A DNA stretch of 64,000 nucleotides from Lytechinus pictus (GCF_037042905.1 NC_087250.1:23872001-23936000), one strand, 5' to 3'. Positions 16,906 through 63,315 are shown, counted from the first letter of the stretch. Notes: generated by a model from the letters alone, not told the origin. Numbers and translations: made by a program.

Positions 16906-17500
16906 AGGGGAATCCAACCCAAATAAAAACTTGTTTTTATAATGAAAAGAAAAATCAGACAAGTTGATAGGTGAAAGTTTGTACAATATTGGACAAACAA
17001 CAAGAAAGTTATGAATTTTTAAAAGTTGTAAATATTGGTAATCACTATACCCATGGAGACTTCAAATTGGCCGCATATGGGATGTCATAGTGATGTAAGG
17101 CAAGGACTACTCTTCCATGTACTCCAATACATATTATGGCTAAAATGTCAGTTTTCCCAAAAGTTTTATTTCAAATTATATTTTTCTTTCATGAAGACAT
17201 AAAACAATATACTATCTGGGTTATATTTAGATTACTGCCCCAGGGGAATTGGTACTTAGGAGAAAACCACAAATCCCTGATAATAAAGTACATGGCCTAT
17301 GGGAAAGTTGTCCTTGCCCCTTGTCATAATTTACTGACCCAGTTGCCAATTTGAAATCTACATAGTATTAGTGATCTCAATTTTAAAGCAGCTATAACTT
17401 TTTTATTGCTGATCCGATTTCTTTCAAACTTTCACCATTTTGTTTAATTTATTTTTCTCCTTCCCAACACAACATGTTATGGCCAAGGCTGGATTCCCCT
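16906..17500. mobile_element. Kolobok-like MITE (TTAA TSD)
   Basis: TTAA|AGGGGAATCCA ... TGGATTCCCCT|TTAA. Confidence 0.8.
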
Positions 17501-17729
17501 TTAATACGGTACGTGACTGTGGTGAAGTGCAGTGCAGTGCGTGCAGCAGTGACCAGTGTGCAAGTGTATGATGATCATGATCATCCGATAATAAATTGCT
17601 TACAGCGTAAAAACAAAAATCTACATCTCAGGCCCACATCTCATTGAACTTCCGCCAGGCACCTGATATTTCATCAATTCATTATCAATTTACATGCATA
17701 TAAACTGGAATAAACACATAAAAACTCAC

Positions 17730-17809: not shown

Positions 17810-18399
17810 ATGGACGACAACGAACGTAGAGGGCAGCAACACACAAGCGTCAGAGTTATCAATAGACAGAGTGGCGACACGCGCACTGAAAACAGGATAC
17901 GCGCGGTCAAAGGTCAGCCATGGGGGCTGATTAGTTCCCTCTGCGCGCACATGCAATGATTTGGCAATCATCGCTATTATCATAATTGATTTTCGACAAA
18001 CTAGCCTATAGGTTCGGAAGAAATGATAATGAATCAAATGTAATTTCTTCTCTTTGGTTTAAACTTTAGAGCTTCATGATAGATCCCCCATTTCGGTTTG
18101 TCTGGCATTTGCATTATCATTAATATTATTCAAGATGAATTCCACTTTTTTATTGAAAATTAATGTGATGAATTATAGAGACTTGATTTACTCGATGAAT
18201 GAAAAATGGAAATAAAGAGGAAAATAAGGAATATGGGAACACGAAAAATTAACAAGGTGATGCTGAAGACATAATGGACTGGAATACTCGGGGGAAGGGG
18301 GCAGCAGGGTGACCAGATTTCACAAAATGAAATACGGGACAATCGACAAAAAATCAACATAGAAGGCTACACAGTGTTACAGACTTGTGAAAAATATAA

Positions 18400-19155
18400 A
18401 GAATGGGAAGGAAGGGTGAACGAAAGAATGAAGGAGAGAAAGAAAAGATATTGAGAATAAAGAAATAAAAAATGAAGGGGAAAATGAACTAAGGAAAAAA
18501 TAAAAAAGTTAGAATAAAAGGATAAAAAAGAATAAAAGAGAATAAAAGAGAGAAAAGGGTTTCCGTCATTCTTTTAAATGAATATAGAAAGAAAGAAAAA
18601 GAAGGGAAGGGAAGATGAACAAATGTGTGAAAGACGAAATAAAGGAGAGAAAGGAAAAAGAAAGTAAGAAAAAAGAGCGGAAAGAAAGATTGAAGGAAAG
18701 ATAATTTTTTCCTTCATTCTTTGAAAGAAAGAAACAATAAAAGAAAAACAGGAATGGATCGGCAAGCTAGGGAAGGAAGGAAGAAGGATGGAAGGGAAAG
18801 AAAGAATAAGGGAAAGGAATTAGAAGGGGAAAAATAAAGAATGAAACAATTAGAGATAAAAGAGAGGGAGGAAAGAATAAAAAAAGAGAAAATAATGGAA
18901 GGAGAAAAAAAGAACGAAAAGAAAAAAGGAGAGAAATGGAGAAGGAAGCAAAGAACAGTTTAAAGAAAGAAAGAAGGAAATGATAAAAAGGAAATTTGAT
19001 AAAGAATGCAAATAAGAGAAAGAAGGAACGAAAGAAAAATAAACACACAGCGAGAGAAAGGATCATGAAAGAAAGATATAGATGGAACAAAAGTGTCAGC
19101 AGCGCGAAGGATAGAATAATGAAGAAGGATATAAAAGAAAGAAAGAGGAAAAAAT
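18400..19155 (+). repeat. Purine (GA/A)-rich low-complexity tract
   Basis: Almost exclusively A/G on the + strand. Confidence 0.85.
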
Positions 19156-19689
19156 TCAGGACTTCAATATTGTCACTCTTAATTATTATCATTGAAATCA
19201 ATATTTTTTGTTATGATCATTGTTATCGTTATAATTACCATCATCAGGGTGGCGAATATCCTGCTTTCTTTCTCTCTCTTCTTTTTTAACTAAAAAAAGT
19301 TGAGGCAGTTGTTGCCCCCCCCCTAATCATCACTATCAAAAGTATTATTTGTAATATTGAGAATGATCCAATATGTGTGGATTCTAATCAATAAATTTTG
19401 AAACTTGAAACTTTCTTTTTTTTAATAGGGGACAAAGGACCCAAGCGTTATATCAACTTTTTATCAATCGAAAAATAAGGGGTACAATTACTTAATTTCT
19501 CTTCTTTGTTTGAACTATTTTAATAAAAAGTAGGGGCGATCAACCAGTGGCGCCCGATCATCATTATCATAATATCTTGTAAATATCTGAAGAAATGTAA
19601 TCCATAGTTGTTCATATCCTATGTTTTTATTCTAAGTGAAATCATCTTGGCTCATTCTGAAATTATTATCTATATAATAAACTCTTACA

Positions 19690-19962
19690 CTCTAACACTC
19701 TATAGAAAAATTTGGTGACAAGTAAGCCATATGGGAGGGTAATTATGTGTCCATCTAACATCTGGCATTTCTTTGGGGCATTTTTATTTATCCAGTGTGA
19801 TGATTTTTTTTGCCCATTCTAAAGTAATTGCTGATTATTTTTTAACTTCACTGGACAATATGCTTCCCGCATTGGGTAAACATGGTAAAATACTTTCCAA
19901 AATAGGTTGGACACATAATTACCATCATAATGGTAAAATTTTACTCATTATTTTTTACAGTG
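19690..19962. mobile_element. Short CACT/CACTG-terminal (EnSpm-like) MITE
   Basis: (TA)CACTCTA..AGAAAAA ... TTTTTTACAGTG(TA) termini; left end degenerate. Confidence 0.45.
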
Positions 19963-22344
19963 TATTTTCGGCACTTTTTTATTTTCCTATAGTAATCGTG
20001 ATTTCACTTGATTATGAATTTGCTGATTGGCAATAGTTGTCTCATAACAAAAACGTTCTTTCCATTTCCTCTGATTGATTTAATCTGACAATTCTGGCAA
20101 ATGGTGGAAACTGTCAATAATCTTTTAGTTGTGAATACACCCCTCCCTTTATCTATCACTCTCTTTGCCCCTCTCATCTCTGGGTCTCTCTCTCTTCTGT
20201 TCTCCGATTTCCCTCTTCCTTTCTATTGTGTGGTGTAACACTGTGTAATGGAAAAAAGGAAAAAAAAGAAAAACAGAGTCTCAACTAATTAAACGCTTGT
20301 AATGTAAATTTAAGATGGAAAGCTTATAGATTTTAACAAAATCAAGGACGAATATTGAAAATGAGAGACAAAATAACTAGACTGCATAACCTCATAGGAT
20401 TTATCTGAAAGATAAAACAATAAGATATCATAAGTGATTTCCATGTAAGAAATACATTTCTCTATGCACAAGAAGGTGGATCCAAACAATACTTTGTTTG
20501 TAATATTGTGTTATGCCACTCCCTCCTTCACATCCACTAAAGCTCAACTGATTATAATCATAAATAACTTTGATTTGCGCGTGCACATCCTATATATAAG
20601 CCTATTTAGAATGACAATAAAAATGAAAATAAATTTCAATTGGAAAATCACATCTTGGTGAAAAGAATAAGGGTGAACAATTTATTTTTTCAATTTTCCC
20701 ATTTACATTATCACATGCAGTGAATTAGACATTCAGGCTGTTGAATCGATTTTAAATAAACTATATTTTGTATTAATGAATTTAAAATTTGAATAACAGA
20801 CACTATATGGAAATGCATTTTGATATAACCTAAAAAAGATGGGTATATGAAAATAAAAATGTACATCCTGCAACATAAGGTGATGACAAGGAAATTTTAT
20901 TGAAAATGTAATACAATAGTCCCAATGACATGATGCATTTGTGGAAAAAAAGGAAAATACCATAACGACAAATTTAAGAAAATAAAAAAACAATTATACA
21001 TAAAATTGATTTCAATATAAAGTTGTTCATTCTTTCAAAATTGCACAATTATTACAAAAGGGGAATGAACATATATTTTACTTAAGTTCGATCTTGCATT
21101 AGGTTCTGATTGTGTTAACATTCATTCCTTGATAAATTGTTTTAAAACATTATCAGCTGAGATATTTCATTTCATTTATTGGTTTCTGCAACACTTTTTC
21201 ATAAACACATTAACAAAGAAAACACAATAATAATATACAAATAACTGACAAGCAAAACATTGAACAAATTGCATGTTATATTAATACATATTTATATTTT
21301 TCATTTCATTTATTTCATTTCATTTATTCATTTGTCCAAAAAATTCATAATACAATAATTACAATAAATAAAACATAACATCAGAAAATACAAATGACAT
21401 AAATCTTCAAATAAACCAAATATGATTATTAGGTTGCAGGGGTTGCCCCTTTAAGCTAAGCTTGAACGCGTGGCAACCCCAAAAAACAATGATAATTATT
21501 TATTACAGTCTATGACTTATCAGAAACCACTTTTAAATGAATAAACTCTGTTCCAGGGACTCTGTTCAGCTAGTCGTTTCCAAAGTTGATGCTTAAAACT
21601 TGTAGCCACTGAAGTCATTACCTTAATTGCATGACCTTTGAAAGCACATGCAATTATGATAACAAAATTAGTGAGCAAGTACAATTACCAGCAGATAATC
21701 CATAATGTGACTATTAGACCTGTGCCATATTCGTCATCAGTCCAAGCAAGTGTTGTTGTCATAGTTATAAGGTCAAAGCATATATGTACGTTAACACATA
21801 TTGAATTAATCACACAAAGCTAACGTACTCTATGAGTGAATAAAGGTACGATCGTGAGTACTGTCAGTATAGGCCCTGAACTTGAACATAGTAATAGCTA
21901 GATGAACTCATGAAAATCACCACACACCAAACACAGGTGGGTTACATGCAGCATGGACCTACTAGGTCCATGCATGCAGCAAATCTGATATTTGTACATG
22001 TAGATGTAGATCCATTATTGCTTGTGAGGACACAGGTCAAAGCACTTTGAATCATCATTTCTTCTGTTTGCATTTATAAAGTAATCTTAATTGAATCACT
22101 GGCTGTCTTGATAGGTAAGCTCTGGACTTGGACTTTGATTTTTTTTATCTACTACGCCTAGACTAGGTCTACATCTACTATAGATCTTCACTAGACCTAG
22201 TCCAGAGTAAATAGACTCGAGCACTGCAGTTCCTTTGTTAGATTAAAAACTTTAATGTAACAACTCAACTGCATTGCATGCAGTGCTGCCTTCAGTCTTA
22301 ATATTATCTCTAGTCTTTGGGTCTAAATTAGACCTACCCAGGTA

Positions 22345-23580
22345 AAAAAACCAGTTGAAACCAGTTGAAATTTTAACTGGTTTCAACTGGAGTCAACTGG
22401 TACCAGTTGAAACCAATTGGCACAACTGGTAAACTCCCACCATGCCAGTATATTCCAGTTGAAACCCATTGTCCCAACTGGACATGCTGAAAACATACAA
22501 GTTTATTCCAGTTGAAACCAATTAACTATACTGGTATAAATTAGTACACCAGTTAATACCAGTTAAAACCAATAGGCCTTTCTGGTTTATCTACCAATAG
22601 ATTCCAGTTTAAAACCCATTAGCCAAACTGGACCATTTGATGCCAGTTGGAACCCATAGAAACCCAATAGGTGTATATACCAGTTAATGCCACCTTAAAC
22701 CCATAAACCATACTGGTATATCATTAAACCAATTGATACCAGTTAGAACCAACATGCATTACTGGTATACCTACCAGTTGATTCCAGTTAAAACCCATAA
22801 ACCAAACTGGATCAGAGTGTTCCAGTTGGAATCCATAGACCTCCCATAACCCCACTTGAAACCCATTAACCATACTGGAATATCAAACCAATGGATACCA
22901 GTTAGAACCAATATAGGCATTACTGGCATATCTACCAGCTGATTCCAGTTAAAAGCCATAAACCATACTGGAGCAGATTATACCAGTTGGAACCCATAGA
23001 CCTCCCATAACCCACTTGAAACCCATTAACCATACTGGAATTTCAAACCAATTGATACCAGTTAAACCAGCATACATTACTGGTATACTACCAGTTGATT
23101 CCAGTTAAAACCCATAAACCAAACTGGAACATATTTTACCAGTTGGAACCCATAGACCTCCCATAACCCACTTGAAACCCATTAACCATACTGGAATATC
23201 AAACCAATTGATACCAGTTAAAATCAACATATATTACTGGTATACTACCAGTTGATTCCAGTTAAAACCCATAAATCAATTAAATTGGGACATATTTTAC
23301 CAGTTGGAACCCATAGACCTCCCATAACCCACTTGAAACCCATTTACCATACTGGAATATCAAACCAATTGATACCAGTTAGAACCAATAGGCATTACCA
23401 GTATATATCTACCAGCTGATTTCAGTTAAAACCCATAAACCAAACTGGAACAGATTATACTAGTTGAAACCCATAGGCCACCCATAACCCACTTGAAACC
23501 CATTAACCATACTGGAATATCAAACCAAATGATACCAGTTAGAACCAATAGGACTTACCAGTTGATTCTAGTAAGAACCC
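22345..23580. repeat. Left subterminal array of D (~120-bp higher-order units of CCAGTT/ACTGG motifs)
   Basis: Repeated CCCATAGACCTCCCATAACCCACTTGAAACCCATTAACCATACTGGAATATCAAACCAATTGATACCAGTT blocks. Confidence 0.9.
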
Positions 23581-23657
23581 GTATATATATAATATATACA
23601 TATATATATATGTATATAAGAGGCATAGTGGTAATGCATTGTACTTATTTCCAACAG

Positions 23658-23696
<39 letters not shown>

Positions 23697-25039
23697 AGAA
23701 CTATGTTTTCATACCTTTGTTGTTTTATTTGTCGCTTCTCTTAAACTGTAACTGACTTTTGAAATATTTTTGTAATTGTTGATATCTGCAGTAATCATTC
23801 AAATTTCTTATCCGACAAGTCACTGGCTCAATATAGCTGTAACCCACTTTACATTAATATTTATATTTTTTGTACAGATCATATTACTTCAAAGTCCTCT
23901 TATCTTTGTTTTTAATTCCTTTTGAGATAATTCTTTATGATTATCATTCATGAATGTGTTTCCTATAACTATTATTATTGTTACCATCAACAAAGCGTTA
24001 CTTTTCTTTAAAAAAAGCAAGTATTATTTCATACAATCCACTCTTTAATCTACATGTATTGTTATTCATTCAACATTGGTTAAATATATATTTATGTGAA
24101 AATGTTCATTATGTTAAAGGTATATACATTTAGCCTACTCCCAACATTTGTCCGTTCCTGCTTTTGACATTACTCCCCCCCCCCTCCCTGTATACTTTTC
24201 TTTTTGTATCCCCTTTCCAATATATACATTAGTATACTTTGTTATTTTTTTGTTGCTTATTTGTTTACTGAAATTTTGCTCTGTACAAATTCATGTAATT
24301 CAGCCTTTTACCACAATAAATGCCATGCATTTATCCATCCTATACACAGCTCGATTGAGGATAAGAGGAAAAAATATCTACATAATAACTAACTTAATTA
24401 TTCTTTATGTTAATTTTAATATTTCCACCTTGAAAAGTTTCATTAAAGTATGTGGTTCGATATTACCATATAACTTAAATCGAAACATGTTATTCTCAGT
24501 GAAATTTTCTAGTTTACATTAAAAAAATTGTTATCCTAGATATTTGTTGCGAGAAAAAAATTTCTTCCTATTTAATCTCTTTTTTCTAATTTAAGTTAAA
24601 GAGGACTATTTTACACTATTTTTACAAATCATATAAAAATTAATGTATTTTTCTTTTTTTAACTCACTGATATTTTAAAAATATTTTTGAAGGTGAATAG
24701 AATAGCTATTTTTTTCTATTTATAACGCGCATATTTATTGCTAGTTTACAACCTTGCCATATTAAGCAAGGCTATCTTTATCTTTCAAAGAAAAAGAAAA
24801 TAAATAAAATAGAAATAAAGAACAAATATTAAGCTAATTCATTCTTAAACTTTCAAAGAAAAAAAAAAGCTCCAAAAGCAGAGGCAAAAATCGTCATTTC
24901 TTGACTGGTTGCCAACCAAAACCAAACAAGAAGAAATGTTTATGTTAAGAAGTTCGTATATCTATTTTAAAACCTCTTTCTTGCTTTAGACCCCCCCCCC
25001 CCCCTTCATTATTCCTGACTCAGCAGATCTTCCTTCAAT

Positions 25040-25326
25040 CACCGGGCGCGGGCGGGCCTGCGCATGCGCACTGAGTGCCACTGATCGCTATCGTCCGTAT
25101 AATTATGCAAATTAACCAGCGCCGCCAAACGCAAACCGCCAATCTAATTTGAATTTGAAAGAGCCATCTTCGCCGCGCCGTTATTTTGCACCGCACTTTT
25201 ATCGAGTGCTAGTGCGATAAAGAAGGATAAAGAAGGCCGTTTTAATAATAATTCAACCGCTGAAATCACACGGACCAGATTTGGACAATGACTTGAAAGC
25301 TAAGACATTCGCAGTAGGCTCTACAG
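25040..25326 (+). promoter_or_regulatory. CpG-rich promoter-like region and first exon inside D
   Basis: GCGCATGCGCA (NRF1-type), ATGCAAAT octamer, CCAAT, then donor CAG|GTAAGT at 25327. Confidence 0.5.
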
Positions 25327-25889
25327 GTAAGTTAACATTTTTCTATGATTTTCTTTTCGTAGTTTGTTAAATGGCGCGGCTCGCAGCTAGCTGCGGGGCT
25401 AGCTGTAACGTTAGAGTTCGTCAGGACATCCTGTTACTGCCCCTCAGCGCTGCCTGCCGGCCGCGACTAGCCGGGCGTGGATGTGTGGCTGCCATGCCGG
25501 TGCAAGTCTGCGCACATACATCATATTGACCTTACGATTTGTGTTAAGATTTAACATGAATTTCTTTTTATTTCACAAAATCTTTCAGTTGATATTGTTC
25601 CATATATTGTTATAAGTAAATGAGAGAGATATGTGATCGAATGTGAAACTGATTTTCTTGGTCTTGGAAAAAATCTGAGACTCGGCCAGTTATGATTTTC
25701 AATTTCAGATTTAACATTATGATAGTGGCCAGCGCCTCGTGTCTGCGCACCAATCACTTTACACACGATTTGAGGATTTTGATGAGATTTTGAAATGCCG
25801 AAAATCGAAATTCATTATTTTTTCCACCATTTTAAGAGTCTGATTTGTTCATGAATAGCTGTTTATCACTTTTTGACTGTGTATTTCAG

Positions 25890-26044
25890 GAGAGAGGGAG
25901 ACCCAAAACTACTGAGCCTCGAGGAGGAGATGAAGTCAGTGAACATGACCTGGGGTACCGGTAGTTTCCAGAAGAAGGCCCAGCTCAGAACCGCCAGGAG
26001 TAGAGATCCGAATACTTCGTTGCTGCCCTCCATATGAGGAGGCT
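25890..26044 (+). pseudogene. RTE-like LINE ORF C-terminal fragment bounded by splice sites
   Basis: Frameshifted RGRPKTT / EEEMKSVNMTWG..KKAQLR / FVAALH; tatttcag acceptor and GTAAGT donor. Confidence 0.55.
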
Positions 26045-26526
26045 GTAAGTTAGGTAATTCAGATGTCAAGTTTTCTTTTGGGGTCTTTGTGTATCTTCTA
26101 TTATGAGAATTATGGAAAAGAGATGGTGATTTAATGGTTTTAAAGATGTAAAATATGAAATTCTAGCACTTTTTTTAGGCCTAATATGAGTTCGGACACC
26201 CTACTTATAATTTTTTTTTGAGGAGCGCGATATTTTTGTACATGACCCAAGCCTAGTTTCACCACAGATTAATTAATAGCTACACAGCTGTTGCATTTAC
26301 AATTTTAATAACAATCTACAACAATTGAGCATTTTATAAAATTGAGTGTGTCTAGGAAAGCAAATTCGGAGGCATAAGGAGAGCCATTTATTGAGCTCCA
26401 TGGAATTATAAACATGAAGGACTGATCTCTGCGACATCGATTTCAGAAGTATTCCCAAGACCAAGTGAACTTACTCATTTTTTAAATAAATATGATGATG
26501 TGCTGTTTATCATTATAGTTGAATCA

Positions 26527-27582
26527 TTGATTCACAATCCCATGTATTTTTCTTAATGTGCAAATGGAATTTTACAACACTCTGTAGTAACCCTTGCCCG
26601 CCTTAGGTGTAGACATGTATTGCTATTCACTGTAATATAGACGTATTTTTATTCACTGTTCACTGTACTGATTATTTTTCTCTCCATTGTTTAAAAAAAA
26701 ATTCTTCAGATACATCGCATCTACCAGCAAAGAACGTGTGCCAGTACAGGGAAGGAATGTACCTGTCGCACGTGAACTCTTCAGAGGCAGTGAGGACAAC
26801 AAGATCTGCAAGCAAGTGATCCTTTTTGTAAGAAAATTTCCAATTTGTACATTTCACAATTAATTTTTTTTAAAGCCTTTGTACACATTTAGAGTATCAA
26901 GGCTTACAAAATGTAAAAATTAAATGTTTGCCCAAAAATCATTATGGGAAAGGTGGATTTCCGAGGAAAAATCAAATCTATCTTTGTTTACACAGTTGTA
27001 CGAGCAACCTTATAGGAGGCTTGTCTAGGCTCCGTGATGAAAATACAATGTAAAAATTGATTCACAATCCCATGTATTTTTCTTAAAGTGCAAATGGAAT
27101 TTTACAACACTCTGTAGTAACCCTTGCCCGCCTAAGGTGTAGACATGTATTGCTATTCACTGTAATATATACGTATTTGTTATTCGCTGTTGTTCACTGT
27201 ACTGATTATTTTTCTCTCCATTGTTTTTGAAAAAAATTCCTCAGATACATCGCATCTACCAGCAAAGAATGTGTGCCAGTAGAGGAAAGGAATGTACCTG
27301 TCGCACGTGAACTCTTCAGAGGCAGTGAGGACTAGATCTGCAAGCAAGTTATCCTTTTTGTAAGAAAATTTCCAATTTGTACATTTTACAATTAATTTTT
27401 TTTAAAGCCTTTGTACACATTTAGAGTATCAAGGCTTACAAAATGTAAAAATTTAATGTTTGCCCAAAAATCATTATGGGAAAGGTGGATTTCCGAGGGA
27501 AATCTATCTTTGTTTACACAGTTGTACGAGCAACCTTATAGGAGGCTTGTCTAGGCTCCGTGATGAAAATACAATGTAAAAA
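26527..27582 (+). repeat. ~530-bp tandem duplication (third diverged partial copy ~28805-29150)
   Basis: TTGATTCACAATCCCATGTATTTTTCTT at 26527 and 27057; near-identical bodies. Confidence 0.92.
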
Positions 27583-27881
27583 TGATAAAATTATCTTCAT
27601 GGAGTCCTCTAGGCTAGCCAGTGACATGGGCCCATGCCCATCAATTTTAATTCATGCTTTTGCATAACCAAATGGCGTGAATTTAAAACTGGAAGTATAA
27701 TTTCAGATTGACCTCCGAAATGAAACGTGCACAATTAGTCTGAACTAAAATAACATTTCCTGAATTTTTTCTTAAATCTGAAGGCTGAAGTATTTTTTTA
27801 TCTTTGAAATTAAATTGGTTCTCGTTGTTTATTACCTCTGACTTACCAGTATGTGTGGGGGTACCGTAGAAGTAGAATTAA

Positions 27882-28468
27882 AGGGATGGTCCAGGCTGGA
27901 AACATATCTCAATAAATAGAGTAAAATTCACATAGCAAAATGCTGAAAACTTGATCAAAATTTGATAACTAATTAAGGTTTTGAATTTTAAAGATTTGCA
28001 TTATTCCGGTGAAATAGTTCTAGGCATGTCTTTATGAATATTCATTAGGTTGGCTGATGATGTCATATCCCAATTGCCCTTTTGTATTTTATTATATGAG
28101 ATTAGGTTTATTAAGATATTTTTAACCAAGAACTATTGACAATTGGATTGACAACTGATTAGGTGCATTAGTTATTGACGCAACTTATTTCATTACAATG
28201 GAGACGCATCATTTACACGTGTATGAAAAAATCAAACATTTATGATTTCATCTAGTAACATAAAAAAAAGGAAAGTGGAGATGTGACATCAGCCCACCTA
28301 ATGAATATTCATGACAAAGTGCATACAACTGTTTTCACAAAATATTGATAAACTTTAAAATTCAATAACTTCTTGTTATCCTATTTTGATGAAATTTTCA
28401 TCATTTTGCTCTGTGAATTTTACTCAAGTATTATTTAGATGTAAATATTTTCGGCCCGGACCATCCCT
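27882..28468. mobile_element. Kolobok-like MITE nested in D
   Basis: TTAA|AGGGATGGTCC ... GGACCATCCCT|TTAA. Confidence 0.8.
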
Positions 28469-29834
28469 TTAATCCTCTGATAAAATTTTGTATTTCATTT
28501 TTTTTTTTGCTTTGTCTTGCATTTTTAAACATGTTCTGGGAACTGCTTTTTGAAAGTTGTCAGCATTAACAAGTTGTCTTTTTCCGACAGTTACCATAGT
28601 AACAGTCAGAGGCCAGTGCTTCTCAGCCAATCAAAAGCAATGATTTCACTGAAATAGTCGGCACTGACAATCATGAAATACCCATCAGATGTTAGCAGAT
28701 AATGTGCAACATAGACTCCTAGATACATATCTATATGCAAACATACATAGTCTAAGTCTTTATTATTAAAATAAATGTATAGGTATAAGGTCGAGGCAAT
28801 TTCATCTCTGCGATGTCAATTTCAGAAGTATTCCCAAGACCATGTGAACTTACTATACATGTTGTAATAAAAATGATGATGTGCTGTCTATCATTTATAA
28901 TTGAATCATTGAAATATGGAACTTAGAGAAGTTTCACTATCCCATGTATTTTCTTTATGTGCAGATATAATTTTACACCACTGAAATTTTGTATTACGGT
29001 ATTCACTGTACTTATTATTTTTCATTCCATTGGTTTTTTTCTTCTAATCTTCAGATACATCGCATCTACCAGCAAAGATCAAGTGCCACTACAGGAAAGG
29101 AAGGTACCTGTTTCACGTTTCCTCTTCAGAGCCAGTGAGGGCCCCAAGATCTCAATAAATAATAATTAAAAAAAGACTCCTTTATAATTCCTTTAAAAAT
29201 AGTACATATTATTTATTGAAGGTAAATGCTTAGATGCATTATATTCAAATTTTGTCTCCAAGCTAGCATGTAAAAATTGGATTGACTACATATTTACTGT
29301 GTAAGTTAATGATCTTTGTTGACACATAATACAAGAATTATACACAGCATGTTACAGTTTGTAACATAATTTTCTTTCATTAAATTCCTAGTTTAAATAC
29401 CATATAGATGTTTTTTGTGACTTTTGTCATTCTCTGATGTTTTTTGGTACAGATTTCAAGAGACTGAGGGATTGATTTACCAGAGCAAGTTTACAGTCCA
29501 ATCCTGTTATATTGTGCATGTGGAAATTAACAAGGTTTCAATACAATGCTACAAATTTACCTTGATTCATTTCATCAGTCCTATGTGCAAGGATAATTAT
29601 TTCACTTGTCCTTGCACATTGTTATAACAGGAGTGGACATTCAATGTAAAGATAATTGAAGATAATTTATAATTGAAATAACCGCCTGAGAGGGGGGGGG
29701 GGTGTTGGTACCAATATTCTAATGTGTGTGTGTGCAAGGAAAACGAAGGAGTGATTATACGAGAAGAGTAAAAGATTGGGAATGTACATATCCACATGAT
29801 TCATTTTTGTTTATGCTATACATTGCAGGGTGTT

Positions 29835-30450
29835 TCTAACTGGTACCACTTGACAATTTATGTTTCCAACTGGTCCTAACTGGTGCTTCCAACTTGTTCT
29901 AACTGGCACCAGTTGACAACTGGTGTTTCCAACTGGTTTTAACTGGCACCAGTTGACAACTCATGTTTCCAACTGGTCCTAACTGGCACCAGTTGACAAT
30001 TGGTGTTTCCAACTGGTTTTAACTGGCACCAGTTGACACCTCATGTTTCAAAATGGTCCTAACTGGCACCAGTTGACAATTTGTGTTTCCAACTGGTTTT
30101 AACTGGCACCAGTTGACAACTCATGTTTCCAACTGGTCCTAACTGGCACCAGTTTACAATTGGTGTTTCCAACTGGTTTTAACTGGCACCAGTTGACAAC
30201 TCATGTTTCCAACTGGTCCTAACTGGTACCAGTTAGGACCAGTTGTCAACTGGTACCAGTTGCTAACTGGTACCAGTTAGGACCAGTTGCCAACTGGTAT
30301 TTCCAACTGGTACCAGTTACAATTTGTCAACTGGATTCCAGTTGATTCCAGTTGATTCCAGTATTCCAATTTCCATATTGAATCCAGTTCGCTAACTGGA
30401 ATCAACTGGTACCAGTACCAGTTGGATGAACTGGTCCTTAACTGGTTTTT
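29835..30450. repeat. Right subterminal array of D (30-bp units / 60-bp dimers)
   Basis: AACTGGCACCAGTTGACAAC..TGTTTCCAACTGGT(TT/CC)T repeated. Confidence 0.92.
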
Positions 30451-31447
30451 TGACCTGGGTAGGCATACAGGTTTTCTAAAATCAGGAGTTTTAACACTTT
30501 GGCCTTAATAACAAAATAGTCTAAATATATATAGGGATACTTTCCTCTCAAATGGGATATTTCCATCTATATAATAGTAAAATTCAGATTAAGACTAGTA
30601 CAGTAGTAGGCCTAGATCTAACTTTAGTTTAGACCAAAAGCTTCAGTCTCTGTATTTTGGTTGTTCCGCTGAACTGTGTTGGCTCACTCACCAATACATA
30701 AATGGGGATTATAGTAAAATGTCAGGAATTGTTGAATAAAATCCCAGAAACGACGGTTATTCCTGTCTAATATAACTTAGACTAAGTTGAAAAGTTCCTT
30801 CACCCGTTGAGTTGGTGGCGCCATCCCTGCAACTAACCGCCTACGGTCTATAGATTGGGCTAAGGTTTCCGCCGCCGAAAGCTCCGGCGGCGCAGCTCCT
30901 TATCTTTGGCTAGGGTCTTAAGAAGGGTAGTCCCATATGCTAGATTTTATGAACTGTTTTTGGTAGAAAATAAATGGATTTCCCCCAAAATAACATGAAA
31001 CAACTTGTTAAAAGATCATTCAACCTTGACAGTCATTGTAAAACACTATTTTCAACACGTTGAGGTAATTTGTGCAAAACATGATTTCACAAAACTTGAA
31101 AAAATTCAATTTTTCTCTCTTACCAAACACTTTTTTCGACATTATTTTGGAAGCCGATTTATGCAAAATAACACCAGATGTATCTACAAAAGGGTAACTT
31201 TATATGTTAAAATACTCACATTGGCATCTAGAAAATATATCCATGAGTTGAAAGTGTCGAGGTATTTAATCACTAAATGTGAGAAAACGTGTAGTTTATT
31301 GAAATTTCCGGAGGCATGCACCAAGCAGAAGATCACAAGCGCAGAAAATATGCCAGAGGGAACTAATTGGGGCTCCATGAAATGTCGGACCAATCAGAGC
31401 ACACTTCCGGTTTCGCCACTCTGTCTATTGATAACTCTGACAAGCGT

Positions 31448-34400
31448 CAAGGCCCTATATAAACAAGGTTGCGACAACAGGGGTCAAAGGTCAAATTTGA
31501 AGGATCTCGAATAGTTCCAACCGGGCCTTTTTGTCGACTGCTACCATTGGAAATGCGTGTAAAATTTTGAATCATTTTTTATAATTATATCGGAAATCGA
31601 CGTTAGAAATTTATTTTCACACTGCACATCCATATCAATATATTAGCGGCCACCTAAATTTATCAAATTTGTACAATCTTATAACAAAAATCGTGAAATA
31701 TCGTTGATTTGAAAAATGGCAACCGAGTTCGTCGCAAGCCGCAAATGCTCACTGCTGCTGGTAGCGAGCGGGACGCTGCACTAATTTTCCCCGGAACTGT
31801 CGGGCTGGATGTAAGGTTCTGCTGGCGCGGCCCCCACGGGTCGTTTGGAGAGCGAGAGGTGAGTATGTACCGGAATGTCATATGGTGCCATAAATACTAG
31901 TTTCATGTCCTAAATTCTTATTGTAGATTTTTTGCCGTAGTAAATTTAGCTGAATTTGATTTTTTTTACCAGAGCACTCAAAAACATGAATGATTTGAGC
32001 ATATCTTTGTGCCTGTCTTTAGTTTGAGTTTGACTGAGTGGGCCCTTAATCATTAATTAATTATTTATTTATTTTTGATTTCTGATATTTAAATAGGCCA
32101 CAGGGCCAGGGCGGCACATATCATCAACTTGGTGGTTTTCCATGTGGCCCTATTAACAAAAAAGTACAGCAAAAAATGTTACTAGATCTATTAATACCAA
32201 ATAGATCTAACGTTAGATCTACGTTAGATCTACATGCAGCTGCAGTGAGTTAAAATAAACATGACAAAATGTAGGCAAAAAATGTATGCGAACATGTTAT
32301 AGGAAAGATGATTGGTATCCTTAATTGGGAATTATGTTCATTTAATATTAAAATCAACTATGACCATTTGAATCAAACCTGTGAATTTAGATATTGAAGA
32401 TGAAACATATATTGCCTATTAATTGATGGAAAGAGAGATAAGTGCTGTGCAGAATGCAGATATTCAATTCTACTAACCTTATTTTTATTAAGAACAAAAT
32501 TAATTTCAAGAATTCAATTTATTTTGGGGGCTTGGGGCCAATGCATAAAGTGAATTTACAACCAGGACTGTACCAAATAGTGAAGTGCTTTATCCAGTTT
32601 AGATCAAAAGAACATAAAAAAAAAAAAGTAAATAAATATTTATTCATTTCAATCACCACACAGCACAAGGTTTACTAAATGAGGATAACGTTAGGTTACT
32701 TATATCATAAAATTTTACATTGGATAAGTGGTCTTGTCAGTTGTCACCAGTTTCCCCTTATATTCCTATCGCTACAGAATTTTTCATAGCGTTCTTAATA
32801 TTTCTACCCTTTATGCCCTGTAAAAACATACCATGGTGTTCTTTGGATTTTATACCATTTCAATGCCTTACATACATGTACCTCGTTGCTCTCGAGATCA
32901 ACATGCTTTATTTTATTTTCATATATGATACAGGCCAGGGTTATCCTTATAGTTGCCACCGTGATGTAAAACTATTCCGAAGGAAAGTGAAATACCCAAG
33001 TAGGCCTAGTACAGTACTAGACCAAAAGCTTTAGTATCTGTATTTGGTTGTTTTGCTGAACTGTGTTGGCTTCTCTCACTTAGTGAAATGTCAGAAATTG
33101 TTAAAGAAATCCCTAGAAATGGTTATTCCTGTCTAGCCTAGTACCAATTTGGCTATAAACTCTTTGTTGTGTACTGGGTGAGTTCAATTCTCACGAGGCA
33201 TATTCGAACATCATTGACCACCAAGTCTATAACCCTAAATGCTTTCATGGTGTCAGTACATGGACAAATGAGTTTAGTAATCCAGTTGGTTTGCATGTAG
33301 CTTCCTTTTTTTTAAAATATTACTTTCATTTCTGCACTGCCAATACTTTGCACATTTTCTAGACCAAAAATCTTCAATCTCTGTACCATCTCAGATGTTG
33401 TTCTGGAAGTTTCCATGGCAAAAAAGAATAGTGTAGCAAAAAACATCTGAGATAGTGTAGTAGGTTTCATGGTCATCATGTATCTTTCTTGGGCAAATGT
33501 TGGTCCTGAAAAGGACCACCCAATCTTGACGTTGCGACAAGTGTGTTCTTGTCGTCCTACTCATGCCTTGTTACTGAAAGCCCTCTCGCTCAGACAGCAA
33601 GTATTGTATGTGCTAGTCCTTACGTGGAGCCACACTTAGAACAAGTTTCATTCGGTCTGTGCCTGCAGACTAAACTAATGTGGCCATGGCACCTCCTCAC
33701 CCATCCAATGCCATATAAAGTTCATATTGGCATTAAAATGTATTTGCTTAATAAAACAACCTCTTTACAACTATCTAAATTAACGCATGATCCAACTATA
33801 TTATCATTACATGTACACTAAATATGAAATAAAAGAAACAATAGGTAGAGAGTGATAGATTGACCCTCATTTTATGCTGTTGCCGCCAATGAAAGTTCTT
33901 AATTTACATTTGGAACTTCATGAGAGTCGAACTCATCCAACATTGCACAAAATGCGGTCAGAAGACAGGCGGAATGATACATGATGAAAGATTTAAAGGA
34001 GAACATTTCAAGGAAATAAGAAAGATTGACTGCACAATGTAGCCCTACATGTATGTAATATAATCACATCTTATTACAATCATGATGAAAATCAAACAAT
34101 CATACTTACACAGCTTACTGGCTTATCCAGTAGTTCCTCTCATCCAAAACAGATCAATCGGCAGCAATTACATGTAGGGCCTATTTTATTTTCCACAATC
34201 AAATTGAAAAAAAAATCTACATTTAGATCTAACTTAGATAAGTTTGGTGCATCAATGATTATCTTGTCAACTAAGCACGTATTATCATTGGCTTTTGTAA
34301 TTACTTAGTTATCACACCATACATATCAACAGAGTAGAGGTCTACATGTGCATGTATGCTTAATTAGGCCTTTAAAGTTTCTTTGAAAAACTACAAAGAA

Positions 34401-36314
34401 TTGATTTTAATTCCAAACCATTTCAAATTACTTGGCCTAGTCGAAGAAATTTTTGGTCTAGATACCCAACCTGTCCAGACATGCAACTAGTGGTATGATA
34501 GGGGCACTTGTCCAATACTACAAGGTTGTGATAACATCCATGTGGTCTTAAACCACTTTTAAAAAATGCAGTGCTAAGCTAACACCACTTTTATCACAAG
34601 GTTGTGATAACCTTGTCCACAGTTAGTAACCTGTGTGGTGAACAAGATTGTCAACAAGATTGTCAATTTTCTCTTGATCTAGACTGGATGAATACTTGAT
34701 ATTTTGGAACAGTCAATTTTGACCATACAGTGAATTCATCATCATAAAAAAATGCCTTGGCACAAAACTAAATTGAATTCTTGAAATTTATAATCTTTTT
34801 CTAATTAAAAAGAGATTAAAAAGAGAGTCTGTGGAGATGAAGATCTGCATCAGTCACAGAGGGCCTCACAAAAATATGCTCAAAATTAAAAGTTTTTGAG
34901 CGCTCTTGTGAATAAAAAAAAAAGATTTCTAAGTCTAGAATGAAAACAAATAACTGAATGGATCTGTCTTTTTGAGTGTGCATTGTACATGAATGTTGCG
35001 TAGACAGAAAGAGTGGTTGGAGAGTGCAAGAGGATGGGGTGCTTCCACTCTTCCCGCAATTCAAGAAACTTTTACTTTTTCCAGGAAAGGTTCCAGAAAT
35101 GAAAAAAATTTCCAGGAAATTCAGGGAAATCCAAAAATTACAAGGGGGGCTCCTTGAGAAGCAAAATTTAAAATTGTAATGTAGAAATGCAGAAGTGTGC
35201 CCCCCCCCCTTTGAACGTGAAGTCCCTTTTATTTTTGCATGTCAATTTTTTCCTCAGGAAAATGTGCCTCCCCTTTTGGAAAATCCTGGATCCGCCCATG
35301 ATTACAATTAAATGACAATTTACCGTAGCAACTTTAAAATATTCATGTAATATTTTACAAAGATTTAGATCTAACATTAGATCTTCCTCCGGATCCAGAC
35401 ATAGGCTCCGTCGTCGGAGCTCAAAATTTTCTGCCCTCGTCATTTCGTAATTTTGTTCCTATTTTTCAAGAGGACATGACGAACAAAAATGTTTTATTTC
35501 TTGATTTTGGTCACTTCTTGGACCAAATTTAGGCTCACTGTATTAATTATTATTGCCAGATTTGAAAAATCAAAATGGAAAATTCCAGGAATTGTCTATG
35601 AATTTCAGAAAATTTGGGATTCATTTTCAGGAAATTTGTTTTGGATCTGTGGAACATCGATGAGGGGTTTGGTGTCCGGACACTGAAAAATGAAGCCTTG
35701 TATTTGTAGAAGTTTAGGCTTGCTGTTGTTTATCTCACTGACTTTTTTTCATTTTTTTTTATTTTATCTCACTTCTCAGCAAAATAAAGCAAAAAATATA
35801 GCTTGGATAATGCTTATCACCATCATTATTTGTTCTTTATAATATTTTCTTACATTCTGAGCTAAAAAAAAAATCAAAGACATTGCTTGTATTTTTTGTA
35901 AACTTTTCAAAATTAAAGGAGATGTCGTGAGTCCGGACCCAACCCGTCAGGAAACACAACCACAGCGTATATCGGGCTACTGAGCCAGCCGCACTGCCGG
36001 CTACAGTTGCCAGTCCCATACCGTATCTTTACTGTCATGTTTACGCCTTGGAACTATTAAAAATTAGTAAAAAAGCATGTTAAAATTCAAAATTATTGCA
36101 AACCAATCATATCAAAATGAAGCACATAAAATTCTCTTTAAAAACTATCATTTTGTTTTTCTTAATAACAATTTTTATTACCTGAAATTTGCTGTCGAAA
36201 AATCTCCCCCATTGACTTTGTACACAAACTTCGGTGAGTTTGGAACTATTCAAAAGCTCCATGAGCAAATGACGGCAACTTCCGGTGTCGCAACCTTGTT
36301 TATATAGGGCCTTG
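31448..36314. mobile_element. Element B: P-like non-autonomous TIR transposon (4.9 kb)
   Basis: Perfect 29-bp TIR CAAGGCCCTATATAAACAAGGTTGCGACA (31448-31476; 36286-36314); TSD ACAAGCGT at 31440-31447 and 36315-36322. Confidence 0.9.
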
Positions 36315-38298
36315 ACAAGCGTGTTGCTCTAAGGAAGGTCAACTCCGCTCGAATTTTGTGACCACTTTAAAAAATAAGGTGGGGTTTTGGGAAATTTGTC
36401 GAGTTGATTTTTTTTCATTTGTTAATTTCAAATATTTTTTAATGAACAATTATTAGATCGGTTATTCTGGGTATAAATATTACAAATATTACTTACATTT
36501 TTAAAGAAAAATATTTAGCTTAAATAATCATGATTTTGACATTTTTCCTAATTTTGGAATATTAAGTCTGTGACGAGGATACCTCATATCTCTTATTTTC
36601 TTCTGCTGAATTTCGCTGCACCACTAATAAATGCATAGACAACCACCTTAATAATCGAGGTCATTTTTCTGGCCTGGGTGCGCTGAGTCTGGGCCGGTCG
36701 CGCAGCTAGCTAGTGACGTTGATGATGCGCTGGGGCTTCAGGCGACTCGTCATAGATCTAGCAACTTATCCCAATGACGTCTAATTTGCCTGGCCTGATT
36801 TGAAGTGTAATGGCTTCAGGGCTGATGTTTATCAACGATGATTGTTCAAGGTTAGATTTCAAATGTTAAATGTCATTTGACTTTTAAGTGTATAAATCTG
36901 AAATAAAGGCGCTGTATCCCCGAAATCCGGGTCTAAATTTCAACTCTGAGTCCGAGACCATGGCATGGACGGCGAAAAAACAACCCATGCATCGGATGCA
37001 TTGCATTGGCTGCGCGCTGCGCTGCAGCTGCACTGTGATGATGGGTTCAGCGAAGAGCTCAGAGAAAATAAGGTGGTTATATTCAATCCCGAAATGCTTT
37101 GCGAGTGGTCACAAAATCGTCTCGACGCAAATCACCTAATACAGCCGTCTGGTGAAATCGCTGATAACAACAATCATCGATTTGGTAATGATTTTAGTTT
37201 CCTGAAACTTATATTTGTAAAGTTTTAAATATCAAAGTATGTTTTTATATGTATGTATATTTCTCAACATATTTTTAAAGTTATCTTTGATAATGTTGTA
37301 GTCATATTCTTTCATATACGTTTTTTGATCGCTACTAATTTGTTGTTGTATTGGATCGGCATTTGATTTCGTTGGCATGAACAATAAAATACGCGCGCAG
37401 CTCAGCTGCATGCGCGTATCGAGTTGACCTTCCTTAGAGCAACACGCTTGTGTGTTGCTGCCCTCTACGTTCGTTGATGGACGATAGAGGGCCCATGGCG
37501 CGGCGACGTAATGTTTGTTTGGCATAAAAGAGAAATTGGGCAGTTATAACTTCATTTGTAATAATTCTGAAAATTTGTAATCTCATTGATATTGATATAT
37601 TTCTTTTTTTCCTGTACAATGTACAAAATCTTGATTTATATGCATTTGGATTGTAAACTTATTGATTTGAAAGAGGAAGAAAATGAAATATTATTCAAAA
37701 CAAAAAACTAAAAGGCTGACGAAAAAAAAAATCTTTAAAAAATATATACCGGTATATATTTTCAAAATTTTTCAATTATTTTCACATATTATAGAGGTGT
37801 TGTACTAAGTTGATATTAAAGCCCCAAGACTTCAGGGGGGCTGAAGCCCACCCTGCCCCCCCCCCGCTTCCGTGGCCCCTACTTTGAACCACAAGTTCAG
37901 GGATCCGAATGCAGCACTCTTTGGCAATTATAAGACATTTATCTACATTTTGCCAATCTCAACCCAGGTGTAGTAAATGGGTACCCGGTATATGTTGCAT
38001 TACTCTTGATATCATTATTATCATTATAGTTATTACTATTATATTATTATTATTGTTATTATCATTATTATTCGTATTTTTATTATTATTATCATCATTT
38101 TATTATAATTACCGTTATTATTATTTTTATCATCATCATCATTATTATTAGATAAAAATAAAGAATGATCATGGCTTATATACTTTCATGTGTAGGCCTA
38201 CATTATTAGTAAAAAAAATCACAATGATAATATATTTTAGGGGCAGGTACACATAAATTATACATGGGCCGAACGGAAACGGATGGGGTTGGCGGCCG

Positions 38299-63189: not shown

Positions 63190-63315
63190 GAATCTGAAAG
63201 AGATCGTTGCTCCAATGAACTAGAGAGGGCGCTAGATAATGTCCATCGTCTAGAGGGCGCCCTCATTGAACAGCAGACTAAAATCACAGAGCTTCAGTCC
63301 CAGTTAGGTCATGAG
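63190..63315 (+). CDS. KIF27: KIF27 coding exon 13 (coiled coil)
   Basis: ESERDRCSNELERALDNVHRLEGALIEQQTKITELQSQLGHE; AG/GT. Confidence 0.85.

Follow-up and report, generated by a model that had tools for sequence, protein, structure and literature searches.

A short asymmetric motif marks the shared insertion site of two stacked P-like transposon families in Lytechinus pictus

Introduction

How do two different transposons come to lie back to back at one and the same 8-bp site inside the terminal repeat of a third? In the present study, we address this question for a locus in a 64,000-nucleotide stretch of Lytechinus pictus DNA (GCF_037042905.1, NC_087250.1:23872001-23936000), hereafter the window, with positions counted from its first letter. 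The three elements are called A, B and C. The left terminal inverted repeat (TIR) of C is interrupted after nucleotide (nt) 33, and the interruption holds A and then B in tandem. A preliminary description of the locus had proposed that A and B are directed to the terminal repeat of C, or that they regenerate and reuse their own target. We report here that a short asymmetric motif lies at a fixed distance from the duplicated target of A and B throughout the genome, inside C and elsewhere, and that sites already occupied are filled again.

Animal cut-and-paste transposons are regarded as having only loose target preferences. For the Drosophila P element, the review PMC7776569 describes transposition that 'is not site-specific', with a weak palindromic consensus and a preference for promoters and replication origins.

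Results

Layout of the nested locus

The arrangement of A followed by B inside the C TIR, as first described, was reproduced base for base at all coordinates. The features are as follows.

17810-17817, no strand: left target-site duplication (TSD) of C, 8 bp, ATGGACGA; second copy at 37477-37484.
17818-17850, plus strand: C left TIR nt 1-33, severed from the remaining TIR by A and B; 100% complementary to 37444-37476.
17828-17837, plus strand: target motif AGAGGGCAGC within the C TIR, of the 10-mer class whose genome-wide offset is described below.
17838-17842: 5-nt spacer AACAC after the motif.
17843-17850, no strand: first copy of ACAAGCGT, equal to C TIR nt 26-33; motif-proximal copy of the duplicated target.
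17851-31439, plus strand: element A, 13,589 bp, non-autonomous, 30-nt TIR CAGAGTTATCAATAGACAGAGTGGCGA(C/A)AC with one mismatch.
17929-17943, minus strand: A left subterminal repeat, read on the minus strand as CAGAGGGAACTAATC and directed to the element end.
31354-31368, plus strand: A right subterminal repeat CAGAGGGAACTAATT.
31440-31447, no strand: second copy of ACAAGCGT, separating A from B.
31448-36314, plus strand: element B, 4,867 bp, non-autonomous, perfect 29-nt TIR CAAGGCCCTATATAAACAAGGTTGCGACA.
31509-31520 and 36240-36251: B subterminal repeats GAATAGTTCCAA.
36315-36322, no strand: third copy of ACAAGCGT, 3' of B.
36323-37420, plus strand: C left TIR nt 34-56 (36323-36345) and the C body.
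37421-37476, minus strand: C right TIR, intact, 56 bp, with an unoccupied motif, spacer and ACAAGCGT; the motif is on the minus strand from 37466.
37477-37484, no strand: right TSD of C, ATGGACGA.

The uninterrupted target can be read in the intact right TIR of C as ...GGCAGCAACAC-ACAAGCGT-GTTGCTC.... The 56-bp TIRs of C are perfect, and ACAAGCGT is present three times at the junctions of A and B. All TIRs and TSDs had been described as perfect; this holds for the TIRs of C and B and for the TSDs, but not for the A TIR with its single mismatch.

Genome-wide census of A, B and C

A pattern search of the 811-Mb assembly for the TIRs of the three elements returned 62 ends of A (~31 copies, mostly 5-9 kb), 94 ends of B (~47 copies, mostly 4.8-5 kb) and, with C TIR nt 1-25, 1,489 ends of C (~740 copies, mostly ~1.16 kb). 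Full-length copies of A other than that of the window measure 5.1-9.1 kb. Exact TIRs are found at 56/62 A ends and 91/94 B ends, and the divergence among copies is ~8% in A and 1-15% in B. Flanks were tabulated for all 156 ends of A and B, as the preliminary description had advised; 32 of them abut another A- or B-type end, and the other 124 are outer flanks.

Many of the ends lie exactly 33 nt into a C TIR, or exactly 8 bp from one another. A C-family TIR flank is present at 24 of the 75 A/B loci and abutting units at 17. Hence, the coincidence seen in the window is systematic and not random, as had been suspected. Among the 47 loci for which both outer flanks are available, identical 8-mers stand on the two sides in 36, as befits an 8-bp TSD. 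The A of the window is 99.4% identical to the copy at G000:C9:5852537, which is also motif-proximal to B in a C TIR, but inverted and at the opposite C end.

A motif at a fixed distance from the insertion point

A motif match was defined as a 10-mer that differs from AGATGGCGCT, AGAGGGCAGC or AGAGGGCGCT at no more than two positions, and 40 nt of flank were scanned. An AGAKGGCRSY-type 10-mer ends exactly 5 nt before the TSD in 50 of the 124 outer flanks. In total, 53 flanks have a best 10-mer of that quality, and in 50 of these it stands at offset 5, against a background of 63 matches per 88,562 positions in the rest of the window. The motif-bearing flanks are divided between C-family TIRs (24, at TIR nt 11-20) and other sequence (26). 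Among the 47 loci with both outer flanks, the motif is on exactly one side in 33, on both sides in two and on neither in 12; each of the two-sided loci proved to be really two separate sites.

For 29 sites that lie outside TIRs classified as C, the logo is C(-19)-N3-A-G-A-K-G-G-C-G-C-T-a(-5). Position -19, which played no part in the selection of the sites, is C in 18 of the 29. The eight TSD columns are uninformative, and the logo is flat downstream as well. The same was evident within the C family, where eight different duplicated 8-mers occur at the target position: ACAAGCGT is the duplicated word in 14 of the 24 C-TIR cases, and C subfamilies show TTTGCAGT, ACAACCGT, ACGGCAGT and others. 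It is thus the position that is conserved and not the 8-mer. The orientation of the element relative to the motif is random (11:8 in A, 18:13 in B) and either end of C is used, which indicates that the insertion events were independent.

Three motif-bearing flanks outside C were tested for copy number. That of C3:5028925 is single-copy, a second is unique at the motif itself, and the third belongs to a tandem unit of 7.46 kb. This third flank is the one at G000:C19:581620-581827 (L031, 1-208), where an A copy adjoins a perfect CCACAAGGGGGCGCT site; the ~7.46-kb unit stands in tandem on several unplaced contigs (357 candidates). A search of four target loci and their flanks against Rfam gave no family, and it had nothing in the 200-bp flank of this A copy.

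These data bear on the proposal that A and B are strict hyperparasites of C, dedicated to it and recognising its TIR, or ACAAGCGT, as such. The share of C-flanked loci and the frequency of ACAAGCGT among them speak for this, as do the vacated sites described below, where by our reading C-type TIRs account for ~20 of the 35 footprints with the motif; on a rough estimate, the occupancy per site of C TIRs is also ~5 times that of exact AGATGGCGCT sites. However, the 26 flanks that are not classified as C-family TIRs use the same motif and the same offset; a few of them resemble degenerate C-type ends. Furthermore, the flanks are unique at the motif in two of the three tests, and the diversity of 8-mers within C TIRs does not fit the recognition of ACAAGCGT. 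As a sole explanation, the hyperparasite is contradicted because there are sites outside C TIRs, and we consider it very unlikely. C is the commonest landing pad; what is recognised is the motif that ends 5 nt before the 8-mer.

Two other candidates were dropped. The first was the palindrome AGCAACAC/ACAAGC/GTGTTGCT, which surrounds the C target and might have determined the site, but the non-C sites are unconserved beyond the motif. Gene conversion, or composite transposition of C::A and C::B alleles, was rejected as the main cause of the identical TSDs because both orientations, both C ends and non-C sites occur.

Vacated sites keep the motif and record the excision

Sites that A or B had left were sought by a genome pattern search for remnants consisting of the two TIR tips only. 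This gave 19 A-type and 33 B-type footprints, flanked by duplicated 8-mers where the flanks were seen. These sites are independent of the motif definition. AG..GG was found at the exact offset in 14 of the 19 A-type and 21 of the 33 B-type footprints (35/52 in total), where by estimate from the base composition ~0.2 such matches would be expected by chance, and all the printed 10-mers at those footprints read as motif-class words. The vacated sites are an independent replication of the motif rule.

The same remnants also indicate how the elements are cut out, as judged from repaired sites. The TIR tip is never longer than 18 nt, with a search sensitive to 24 nt, and by our reading 17-18 nt are reached on at least one side in 7/19 A-type and 16/33 B-type footprints. 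In both families a full-size footprint measures 36 bp, composed of 18+18 or of 17+AT+17. Staggered cleavage of 17 nt is given for the P element in the accessible part of PMC7776569, and the footprint tips fit such a long staggered donor cut. In addition, A and B have TIRs of 30 and 29 nt together with subterminal inverted repeats, in the manner of P elements.

The competitor in classification is the hAT superfamily. Its excision proceeds via hairpins on the flanks and leaves no transposon bases behind, its TIRs start with the consensus YARNG, and the TSD pattern (G/A)TNNNNAC is known for both hAT and P elements. An 8-bp TSD and CA-R-N-G starts fit either superfamily: A starts with CAGAG, B with CAAGG and C with CAACG, the TSDs of C follow the shared pattern, and 62 hAT dimerisation-domain matches were found in the genome. 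Against this, no hAT remnant is found within A or B, and both TIR tips are retained in all 52 footprints, where their length stops sharply at 17-18 nt. Because of these retained tips, the term 'P-like' used from the beginning is supported over hAT for A and B, and their membership in hAT is improbable.

Stacked arrays

At 17 of the 75 loci, two or more A/B units or remnants stand 8 bp apart, with up to five units in one array. In nearly all of these arrays a single 8-mer is shared, and it differs between arrays (ACTTTTAT, ATTTCTCT, AAATACTA, CAACGAAC, GCGCTGGC, ACAGCAGT and others). The largest array, C3:5029125-5059704, consists of five units. These loci bear out the second of the initial suggestions, that tandem arrays grow because the target is regenerated and used again.

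Integrase systems, too, give stacks in which different elements stand apart by a single short sequence that is always the same, and a site-specific recombination at an att-like 8-bp core, by a tyrosine or serine recombinase of Crypton-like type, was therefore weighed. In the present case, the 8-mer is specific to the locus and duplicated from the target, the orientation is random, the excision footprints lie between duplicated 8-mers, and Pfam showed no recombinase domain among the open reading frames (ORFs) of A and B. The recombinase is contradicted because the 8-mers are variable and derived from the target. An artefact of assembly or of haplotype collapse would not give the same architecture at 17 loci, on many contigs and with different 8-mers. 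We regard this pair of explanations as extremely improbable.

Nature and kinship of A and B

A and B had been taken for independent, distinct families. In an ungapped comparison, 17 of the 30 TIR positions are identical between the two, and the consensus was matched by no third family. A carries CAGAGGGAACTAAT at both ends, 73-95 nt from the tip, with the core TTAGTTCC at 41 of the 42 A ends examined; B carries TTGGAACTATTC at both ends, 63-76 nt from the tip, at 20/22 ends. The subterminal core GGAACTA is thus common to both elements at both ends, within 63-95 nt. By the TIR match, the common GGAACTA repeat and the identical footprint ceiling, A and B are sister non-autonomous families rather than unrelated ones. 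The subterminal repeats are putative transposase sites, and the features common to A and B would fit a single transposase.

Some further similarities were noted at the ends. Beside the left TIRs of A and B lies a common word, GGTCAAAGGTCA, in which AGGTCA half-sites are directly repeated (17879-17920; 31476-31497); beside the right TIRs, the common word is CCGGAAGT (31399-31412; 36276-36288). They may serve as sites for a promoter or a factor, or as additional sites for the transposase. A 39-bp palindromic mini-element, CATAGAGATGTATAC...GTATACATCTCTATG, was also seen inside a C-variant TIR at G000:C2:2273200-2273260 (L125, ~7380-7440), flanked by the 8-bp duplication GTTGCTGC. Its tip is fused to a 17-nt A tip at C20:8109187, C3:79443470 and C2:42100377, which suggests at least one more family in the same guild.

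A and B have no coding capacity. They contain no long ORFs, and none of their 94 ORFs of at least 45 aa gave a Pfam match over threshold. A tblastn search with a P-type frame against all retrieved DNA, A and B included, gave no match; a genome search with the degenerate A/B TIR consensus matched only A and B ends; and the 7.4-kb C-variant (L125) has no transposase. The Pfam scan of the genome returned, beside the hAT matches, 41 matches to PF21787 (P-type RNase H), and none of the hAT and P-type matches visibly adjoin A or B ends. The genome has open THAP9/P-type frames of 817 and 959 aa with helix-turn-helix, RNase H and GTP-binding domains. The two open P-type loci examined (L126 and L127) have no TIRs like those of A, B or C; in L127 the only inverted repeat seen is one of 14 nt, whose meaning is uncertain. 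As a side observation, the P-type loci at G000:C4:26170661 (L126) and C21:9248440 have identical match scores and identical open-frame lengths of 959 aa. The L126 frame has a long Glu/Lys-rich N-terminal part, and there are no TIRs within 5.2 kb around the C4 copy; these frames could represent a THAP9-like gene that has been duplicated recently or domesticated.

C as a separate system

C appears to be a system separate from A and B. The TSDs of C itself follow (G/A)TNNNNAC and lack the motif (24 flanks), the C sequence of the window lacks the GGAACTA repeat by eye, and small C remnants are rare (8) and without the 17-18-nt ceiling. In some small C remnants (G000, C10:34162681, C16:5945218 and C2:7945881), the reverse complement of TIR nt 1-8 or 1-25 comes after TIR nt 1-25. 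The break in these coincides with the A/B insertion position.

Discussion

Proposed model

Overall, we hold it highly probable that A and B are sister families mobilised by a P-type enzyme, that their integration is anchored by the motif, and that the target is reused. A and B are non-coding cut-and-paste transposons with 8-bp TSDs, and they would be mobilised in trans by a transposase of the P-element type. Integration is anchored by an asymmetric motif of ~15 bp, roughly C-N3-A-G-A-K-G-G-C-G/A-C/G-T/C-a, and the 8-bp staggered cut always begins at the sixth base past the 10-mer core. It does not depend on the identity of the 8-mer, on the sequence farther on or on which way the incoming element faces; for the sequence farther on, this fits the flat logo downstream. 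C carries one motif in each 56-bp TIR, so that C TIR nt 26-33 is the commonest landing site because C is a motif carrier of ~740 copies and not a dedicated host. Integration would duplicate the 8-mer and leave the motif, the spacer and one copy of the 8-mer intact, and the site would remain a target. The next A or B would land at the same 8 bp, giving the order motif / TSD / element / TSD / element / TSD. In the window it is A that adjoins the motif, so A would have arrived later than B.

Several points weigh against this model. In the first place, 12 of the 47 complete loci have no motif at the two-mismatch threshold. Five of these are a single B insertion copied in another repeat, three have a version with 3-4 mismatches, one is shifted by one extra nt, and at C8:16278497 one of the flanks holds the inner half of a C TIR; C17:19691036 and C21:1733459 have no motif at all. 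Secondly, the 10-mer references were picked after the data had been seen, and the motif with two mismatches would occur ~1 million times in the genome, which implies that the true determinant is more specific or depends on accessibility. Thirdly, two arrays do not share a single 8-mer throughout: one junction of the C3:5029125 array is TCCGATAC, and the C3:79434514 cluster mixes ACAAGCGT, ACGCTTGT and ATCTGGTA, which we read as more than one site. In addition, the multi-occupancy of 17/75 loci exceeds the expectation from uniform use of at least 1,489 C-TIR sites; either occupied sites or a hot subset of sites are favoured, and the simple model leaves this unexplained. Finally, the TIR, Pfam and tblastn searches found no autonomous A/B-type element or linked transposase, and the P-type enzyme is hence inferred from the footprints and the architecture of the ends.

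Two of these exceptions deserve a description of their own. The five B copies without the motif (G000, C3:65878709, C4:30257168, C14:3087590, C17:10649890 and C18:14057854) have the same flanks and the same TSD, CTATCTGY, and are apparently one B insertion multiplied passively in another repeat or by segmental duplication. In the five-unit array, two A-type units at G000:C3:5040708-5053263 (L014, L015) are joined by TCCGATAC and the pair is flanked by ACTTTTAT; it looks like a composite that transposed as one piece.

What reads the motif

The motif could be read by a host protein or by the transposase. In the first case, a CTCF-like zinc-finger insulator protein seated on the motif would position the transpososome, and the cut would fall at the edge of its footprint. 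The logo C-N3-AGAKGGCGCTa matches the strongest positions of the CTCF core consensus, which we take to be CCASYAGRKGGCRSY. The random orientation of the elements fits positioning by an external landmark, and two of the three tested flanks are unique at the motif. The 10-mer is also frequent in the genome away from A, B and C: the spaced pattern AGATGGCGCT-N13-CA has 462 matches, about half of them outside one repeat family, against 14 for the reversed control; this enrichment is inflated, as the reversed control has one CpG more than the motif. The matched genome sites share the following bases of the target logo (A[TG]ACC-like). In the accessible part of 10.1101/407031, three high-occupancy mouse CTCF sites also match the logo, and one mouse site is a single base off the target CCACAAGGGGGCGCT at C19:581820. 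On the other hand, the version of the motif in the C TIR has its upstream C at -18 and not at -19. We see the host protein as a possible reader, though a rather unlikely one. Its fullest form, in which CTCF or a CTCF-like zinc-finger protein would serve as a ruler for a P-type transpososome, A and B integrating at the edge of its footprint and C scattering ~1,500 sites as stacking pads, appears more doubtful still.

In the second case, the DNA-binding domain of the transposase, which would bind the subterminal repeats of A and B, would also bind their look-alikes in the target, and a spare subunit of the transpososome would dock the complex at a fixed distance. Of the 11 positions of the target consensus AGAKGGCGCTA, the A repeat agrees with 9, with CG against AA as the only difference, and the B repeat agrees with 7. 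This resemblance was noticed post hoc, and about one match with two mismatches is expected in the 1,600 positions scanned. Moreover, the repeat of the element lies ~75 nt from the cut, whereas the target motif lies 5 nt from it, and the core CG, the most conserved part of the target, is exactly what the repeats of the elements lack. We offer docking by the transposase as a tentative reading. The two readers are not separable by sequence alone.

Comparison with known systems

The likeness of A and B to the Drosophila P element extends to the 8-bp TSD, TIRs of ~30 bp starting with CA, subterminal inverted repeats, non-coding derivatives mobilised in trans, and donor remnants that fit a 17-nt staggered cut. 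McGurk and Barbash (2018, PMC5932611) report tandem dimers of P elements with an 8-bp TSD between the units, which arise by double insertion at strong hot spots. As in these dimers, the units described here are separated by one TSD and the insertion preserves the target. Double insertion into a regenerated TSD is therefore already known for P elements (PMC5932611). The preliminary description had mentioned tandem insertions at hotspots that usually involve the same element; the first half is documented by the P dimers, but the stacks reported here mix two families, and they reach five units. Unlike P, A and B have a site fixed to the base by an asymmetric motif outside the TSD, a full footprint of 18+18 (or 17+AT+17), and no transposase-bearing copy was found for them in the searches described above.

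Tn7 is a prokaryotic element with a heteromeric TnsABC+D apparatus, one fixed orientation and target immunity. As at attTn7, a protein would read the sequence beside the insertion point, the distance is fixed, and different elements can stack; A and B differ in that they insert in either orientation and reuse occupied sites. Ty3, a retroelement with an integrase, integrates at Pol III start sites via TFIIIB. It and other tethered integrations resemble the present case in the near base-precise positioning by a DNA-bound host factor, and this is the analogy behind the host-protein reader. The TSD of Dada is 6-7 bp, in contrast to the 8 bp of A and B. Dada is a eukaryotic cut-and-paste DNA transposon with strict specificity for multicopy sequence, small RNA genes (Kojima and Jurka 2013, PMC3706591). 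A and B differ from it in having no Rfam family at the four target loci and in the occurrence of a single-copy flank; their target is a short motif of putative protein-binding type that lies partly on another transposon. From hAT elements, with which they share the 8-bp TSD and the CA-R-N-G start of the TIR, they differ in retaining 17-18 nt of TIR in the excision footprints.

We know of no cut-and-paste DNA transposon of animals that is positioned, as Ty3 is, by a DNA-bound host factor. In the part of the literature listing that was scanned, no report was found of motif-anchored targeting by P-like or hAT-like elements, or of DNA-transposon insertion linked to CTCF. Base-precise targeting anchored by an asymmetric motif, stacks of mixed families and the high-copy C as a carrier of sites appear to be new.

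A P-type insertion fixed by a motif of ~15 bp would represent natural, programmable-looking targeting in a eukaryotic DDE transposon, with a clean genomic record of occupied sites, vacated sites and stacks. It explains mixed tandem arrays at defined positions, which are a possible seed of satellite DNA, and one transposon family, C, here shapes the insertion landscape of others. If the motif were the site of an insulator protein, transposon targeting would be tied to the proteins of chromatin architecture. If CTCF were the ruler, there would be base-precise targeting guided by a host factor, and the spread of insulator-like sites would be coupled to a secondary accumulation of transposons.

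Further features of the window

The A of the window is about twice the usual 6-7 kb because an unrelated element is nested within it:

22337-30459, no strand: 8.1-kb element inside A, with a TA duplication at 22335-6 and 30460-1 and the TIR CCCAGGT(A/C)AAAAAACCAG.

The interior of this element is made up mostly of 40-bp and ~160-bp tandem arrays of CCAGTT/AACTGG words, and it is missing from the other A copies.

The Logan public contigs break at repeat borders. One run matches the unique left flank to ~17807 with no differences, and none of the contigs joins the flank, the C TIR and A with at least 31 letters on either side. A very high-copy repeat is situated just left of the locus at 17300-17504, where word depths reach tens of thousands in public contig sets of three organisms. 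On the other side, directly after the right TSD of C, a motif-like word, TAGAGGGCCC (37485-37500), faces away from C. Two unoccupied copies of the motif lie at 63224 and 63252, within 63216-63270, in direct orientation and 28 bp apart.

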